From Escherichia coli (GTDB taxonomy: Bacteria > Pseudomonadota > Gammaproteobacteria > Enterobacterales > Enterobacteriaceae): a stretch of 64,000 bases of DNA. Shown piece after piece: positions 27,935 to 27,940 of this stretch (positions are counted from its first letter, which is position 1; each line of letters opens with the position of its first letter). The stretch is from assembly GCF_003334815.1 (NCBI RefSeq), contig NZ_QOWO01000005.1; one strand, 5' to 3'. The notes below the pieces were generated by a model that was not told where the DNA came from, did no database searches, and was given only the letters and a program-made list of their open reading frames with translations. The translations under genes were made by a program, and so were the position numbers.

Positions 27935-27940
27935 GTGTGA

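Follow-up and report, generated by a model that had tools for sequence, protein, structure and literature searches.

Position -1 of the lac promoter in Escherichia coli: A is the majority base and the G of K-12 the exception

The lac promoter and its described relatives

The base at position -1 of the lac promoter lacP1 is already documented as a natural variant in Escherichia coli. In the literature it appears as the "O1-operator/+1 site" difference that sets the K-12-derived PlacUV5 of BL21(DE3) apart from the native Plac of B strains (PMC4632034, PMC5306230). According to Kwon et al. (2015; PMC4632034), the PlacUV5 region in front of T7 gene 1 in BL21(DE3) is the same as the native lac sequence over 1,723 bp, with the exception of four nucleotides. 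In C41(DE3) and C43(DE3) the same study describes three changes "at the -10 and +1 regions", which came about via homologous recombination with the native promoter (PMC4632034).

Here, we describe a stretch of E. coli DNA of 64,000 nucleotides, called the window in the following, that carries a complete lac locus with A at -1. When the DE3 lac segment is compared with the native lac of E. coli B, and likewise with the window, exactly L8 (-66), UV5 (-9 and -8) and the -1 base (G versus A) differ. These four positions agree with Kwon et al. (2015; PMC4632034) and with a review from the de Gier group (PMC5306230).

The native lac of E. coli B (BL21, REL606, NEBExpress; "PlacWT") resembles the window in having A at -1, and it shows the same four differences from the DE3 segment over the 1,723-bp stretch from lacI to lacZ'. 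It differs from the window in its genomic background and in a few lacZ SNPs elsewhere. The lacP1/O1 region of K-12 MG1655, which is the textbook sequence and the one in pUC/M13 vectors, is identical to the window in lacI, O3, CRP site, -35, -10, O1, O2 and lacZYA. Unlike the window, MG1655 has G at -1 and, nearby, IS2A, IS3B and a private nonsense codon in yaiS.

The PlacWeak promoter of C41(DE3) and C43(DE3) shares with the window both the wild-type -10 and A(-1), and in PlacWeak these were copied from the native B promoter through RecA-dependent recombination. However, PlacWeak keeps the L8 mutation in its CRP site and is placed in the DE3 prophage, where T7 RNA polymerase is expressed from it, while the window has no L8 and is followed by its native lacZ. 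The promoter SNPs of C41/C43 were reportedly first described by Wagner et al. in PNAS in 2008.

More distant are the plasmid-borne lac operons of Klebsiella, Citrobacter and Enterobacter. They have the same lacI-P-O1-lacZ order as the window and A at the equivalent of -1, but their regulatory regions are only about 94-97% identical, with changes in and around O1. In pBckp186 of K. pneumoniae (NZ_CP050844.1; from milk) a 14-bp deletion at about 440-460 takes away the start region together with the left half of O1, and constitutive lac expression would be expected from such a sequence.

Another E. coli lac control region is found at positions 1-200 of ATTF01000058.1, a 1,056-bp contig recorded as 'Candidatus Pelagibacter ubique HIMB058'. 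It combines an L8 CRP site (AATGTAAGTT) with a wild-type -10 and the G(-1) of K-12, and a laboratory construct is almost certainly the source of this contamination.

The lac locus of the window

The features of the locus are listed in Table 1. An exact O1 overlaps the transcription start; the CRP site, the -35 and the -10 stand 5' of it with canonical spacing, and both auxiliary operators are present. Further, lacI lies on the 5' side and lacZYA on the 3' side, in the mhp-lac-cyn setting of the chromosome. At the three positions that are changed in the engineered variants L8 (-66 G>A) and UV5 (-9/-8 GT>AA), the window is wild type.

Table 1. Coordinates of the lac features in the window
Feature	Position	Strand	Remarks
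lacI	26774..27856	+	360 aa, K-12-identical
Auxiliary operator O3	27849..27869	+	GGCAGTGAGCGCAACGCAATT; overlaps the end of lacI
CRP-cAMP site	27869..27890	+	TAATGTGAGTTAGCTCACTCAT; wild type, not L8
lacP1 -35 hexamer	27905..27910	+	TTTACA
lacP1 -10 hexamer	27929..27934	+	TATGTT; wild type, not UV5
Extended dyad around O1	27936..27966	.	Symmetry computed for the A and G alleles
Polymorphic base, lacP1 position -1	27940..27940	+	A here, G in K-12 MG1655
lac operator O1	27941..27961	+	AATTGTGAGCGGATAACAATT; exact, centre 27951; unique 21-mer match, chance expectation 0
lacZ	27979..31053	+	1024 aa, K-12-identical
Auxiliary operator O2	28342..28362	-	Within lacZ; centre-to-centre distance from O1 401 bp
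lacY	31105..32358	+	417 aa
lacA	32424..33035	+

From its sequence identity to K-12 and B, lacP1 of the window is predicted to be repressible by LacI, inducible by IPTG or allolactose and dependent on CRP. We expect it to work like any wild-type lac control region, with LacI tetramers binding O1 and looping to O2 or O3, P1 activated by CRP-cAMP, and transcription beginning mainly at the A of 27941.

From 27929 to 27961 the window reads TATGTT GTGTGA AATTGTGAGCGGATAACAATT. Position 27941, the seventh base past the -10 hexamer, is +1, hence 27940 is -1, six bases past the hexamer. It sits one base 5' of the 21-bp O1, 11 bp from the operator centre, and outside both the O1 core and the -10 hexamer. 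In a direct alignment the A of 27940 is homologous to a G in K-12 MG1655, at coordinate 366344 of NC_000913.3, which makes the difference a purine-for-purine change. The initial annotation had given G as the textbook base, had placed the difference where transcription starts, on the left edge of the sequence protected at O1, and had proposed an alignment to the reference lac promoter as a check. This alignment confirms the base, its coordinate and the textbook G; the siting is also right.

Over its full length the window is collinear with MG1655 329.7-396.5 kb (reverse strand), with approximately 99.9% identity. Between positions 19363 and 36400, i.e. over about 17 kb with mhpE, mhpR, lacIZYA, cynXST and cynR, 27940 is the sole difference from MG1655. 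Four markers of the K-12 laboratory lineage were looked up (G at lacP -1, IS2A in yaiX, IS3B in yaiT, and TAG at codon 186 of yaiS), and the window has none of them. Since it lacks the IS3B and IS2A of K-12, the window comes from a wild relative of K-12 and not from a K-12 descendant. Its lineage is probably phylogroup A/ST10-like.

Outside the lac locus a number of other differences from MG1655 can be observed. The genes yaiT (an ORF of 968 aa; 2664-5570) and yaiX (12931-13641) are intact in the window, while IS3B and IS2A interrupt them in MG1655. In yaiS, the window has CAG at 11760 in place of the TAG stop of K-12, so that the ORF is longer (11205-11876, 223 aa). The window allele of yaiS is found in 2,213 records and the TAG allele in 365, both examples of the latter among the matches listed being K-12-type. 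YaiS of K-12 is therefore truncated through a private nonsense mutation, in parallel to the private G at lacP -1.

Those coding SNPs between MG1655 and the window that are placeable in frame, with yaiT and the SNPs at 50040-60939 excluded, are all nonsynonymous and none is synonymous. They are located at 9424, 15785, 16162, 40420, 43544 and 48732, in addition to the yaiS stop, and the amino acid changes relative to MG1655 are tauB R64L, frmA V291G, frmB M16V, prpE T320K, prpC L177M and xtpA V3A. Most of the apparent intergenic mismatches are explained by REP/BIME-type arrays at 19121-19362, 36410-36615, 44112-44400 and 53873-53962, which differ from MG1655 in copy number or sequence.

In yahG, on the minus strand, a T-run at 54868-54875 is one T longer than in K-12 (record 338839), and the gene is split into ORFs at 53970-54842 and 54802-55389. 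The extra T is absent from all 3,003 genomes having this segment. It represents a private frameshift, or else a homopolymer error made in sequencing the source assembly.

Frequency and ancestry of the two alleles

The two alleles were counted with allele-specific 31-mers, for which each 28-base megablast seed word spans lacP1 -1, in the 5,426 complete E. coli genomes of RefSeq. In this collection, which is a biased sample, the centred 31-mer of the A allele is found in 4,069 of the 5,426 genomes, about three-quarters, and the carriers include O157:H7 and E. coli B. The G allele is found in 797 of the 5,426 genomes in the same centred frame, and in 816 when the 31-mer is shifted, where lacUV5 constructs are caught too. 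A 57-mer from the region has some match in 5,223 of the 5,426 genomes, and approximately 340 genomes having the lac region match neither the A nor the G 31-mer.

At lacP1 -1, A is thus the majority base of the species and the G of K-12 an exception. When the carriers of G are divided by the K-12-private TAG stop of yaiS, present in 365 records, we estimate about 350-370 K-12 derivatives and about 430-450 wild carriers. The suggestion of the initial annotation that the difference may be a natural strain polymorphism is borne out by the frequencies of A and G, and it is the main answer of this study.

A sequencing or assembly error at 27940, or a laboratory-engineered change such as the one in the C41-like PlacWeak, would be another way to obtain an A. 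The window does contain the private homopolymer indel in yahG, possibly a sequencing error, and C41/C43(DE3) have this A as their third SNP. However, an error or a construct does not agree with the occurrence of the same A 31-mer in 4,069 genomes, nor with a wild-type CRP site and -10, full-length lacZYA and not T7 gene 1 downstream, and the missing K-12 IS elements. As A is common in the genomes and in the closest natural relatives, we reject an origin by error or engineering; its probability is next to nil.

The haplotypes were studied in an alignment of 5.1 kb of lacI-lacZ from 16 genomes together with the window and K-12, and in a tree based on 4.1 kb of lacI-lacZ. LR-71-1 (human, Ecuador) carries A and is 100% identical to the window over 5.1 kb, and CP8-3_Sichuan, also with A, is 100% identical over 4.9 kb. 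Two other carriers of A, 20A24 and H10407, show one and two differences from the window, respectively, while E. coli B (A) differs at 4 sites in 4.1 kb. The A base is also present in NCTC8623, B-766, O157:H7, BH100, G749 and A25.

The seven wild G isolates that were sampled (118UI, WB61, WP4-S18, CS18F, ETEC4077, SX4 and 097H6) form one clade. Their lac haplotype is 2-3% divergent from that of the window, corresponding to 100-135 differences in 4.1 kb. In the same tree K-12 and the K-12-type transconjugant THB42-F4 nest among the carriers of A, with zero other differences. On the haplotype shared by the window and K-12, G is seen in K-12 laboratory descendants only. Further, the best 60 listed exact matches to the K-12 57-mer are all K-12 laboratory strains or engineered or transconjugant derivatives. 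G is already present in EMG2, the original F+ lambda+ K-12, so this G is older than the split of the K-12 laboratory sublines.

In WB61 (NZ_CP020025.1), one of the wild G isolates, the annotation breaks lacZ into two pseudogene pieces, and near codon 970 there is a duplication or an indel.

As outgroup we used the plasmid-borne lac operons of K. pneumoniae, C. freundii and E. hormaechei, a family of approximately 1,300 records. All three representatives with an intact O1 have A at the position equivalent to -1. Because the outgroup operons have A, this comparison shows that A is the ancestral base at lacP1 -1 and G the derived one. The initial annotation had read the change as G to A, and here the direction has to be reversed, A being both the majority base and, by the outgroup, the ancestral one. 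There were at least two origins of G, one in the wild G clade and an independent one in K-12. The textbook G is most probably a private A-to-G transition of the laboratory lineage.

Instead of a new point mutation, K-12 could have acquired its G by a short patch of gene conversion from the divergent wild G haplotype, as a clade that might serve as donor does exist in nature. However, at the closest diagnostic sites on either side, 27919 (21 bp upstream) and 27972 (32 bp downstream), K-12 still has its own haplotype, so a conversion tract must be shorter than 53 bp. It also matches the window across the approximately 17 kb around the site, save for 27940 itself. We therefore regard such an import as very improbable, and a private A-to-G transition as the simpler reading of these sequences.

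The -1 base and lac regulation

The initial annotation had suggested that the difference could modestly affect LacI binding or the selection of the start site; the published rules for start sites and a position beyond the 21-bp O1 core speak for a small effect at most. We expect the identity of the -1 base to matter little, or not at all, for repression and promoter strength; a minority of transcripts, at the most, might begin at -1, with ATP rather than GTP. In the literature that we searched, no measurement isolating G versus A at lacP -1 was found. Since PlacWeak and PlacWT both carry A, a comparison between them is uninformative on the -1 base.

In general, the preferred start lies 7 bp from the -10, at a purine that directly follows a pyrimidine on the nontemplate strand (PMC5730371). 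G and A are both purines, so the purine/pyrimidine class of the base preceding the start is unchanged. The position six bases past the -10, which is -1 here, is a minor start that is used in about 8% of cases on average (PMC5730371). In a study of lac promoter variation in 91 strains, variants were found at positions of low predicted regulatory impact, and for natural variants in the RNAP site the predicted change in binding stayed below 1 kBT (Razo-Mejia et al. 2014; bioRxiv 003772). Further, both alleles persist in many wild isolates, and the lac regions are intact in every locus fetched. Near-neutrality of A versus G at -1 is what we consider probable.

The -1 base could on the other hand be a functional regulatory variant, where A gives slightly tighter binding of LacI or alters initiation, either through more ATP starts at -1 or through reiterative slippage on AAA. 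In that case a measurable difference in leakiness or strength would be expected between the wild-type (A) and the K-12 (G) promoter. With regard to binding, the A at 27940 leaves the TGTGAAATTGT / ACAATTTCACA pair of the outer dyad unbroken at positions 5-15 from the O1 centre, and the G of K-12 interrupts it at position 11. In the 24-bp fragment of Gilbert and Maxam the -1 base reportedly lies within the stretch that LacI protects from nuclease, which counts against neutrality. However, the site is outside the 21-bp O1, at 11 bp from its centre, and no operator-constitutive mutation is known to map to lacP1 -1, which we count against a functional variant.

With regard to initiation, the A allele makes an AAA run at -1..+2 of the nontemplate strand, and this reaches the minimum homopolymer length of 3 nt that has been reported for reiterative initiation. 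The use of the sixth position as a minor start also speaks in favour of an effect. However, the main start at +1 gives only AA, and slippage on AAA would concern only the minority of transcripts that begin at -1. The unchanged purine class, the small binding change predicted for natural RNAP-site variants and the wide distribution of both alleles among wild isolates likewise argue against a functional variant. That A-to-G arose twice independently argues for it. Taken together, we find a functional effect unlikely.

The recurrence of A-to-G in two lineages could also be a hint at selection rather than drift. The G breaks an otherwise uninterrupted 11-bp outer dyad of O1 and abolishes the AAA run at the start site. 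If selection on lac regulation lies behind the private change in K-12 and its independent recurrence in the wild clade, which we consider improbable, the 'wild-type' lac kinetics that have been measured in K-12 for decades would be measurably unlike those of most natural E. coli, whether in basal leakiness, in the use of start sites or in slippage.

The joint explanation that we hold to be highly probable is a canonical lac locus, where A is the ancestral and commonest natural allele, the G of K-12 is private and the -1 base is near-neutral. As a documented polymorphism in the best-studied promoter of biology it has little discovery value. It does explain the "third mutation" in the lacUV5 of C41/C43(DE3), which is the ancestral base of the native B-strain promoter, copied in by recombination. 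Further, the K-12 reference is not the species consensus at lacP1 -1, and differences from K-12 should therefore not be read as mutations of the query.
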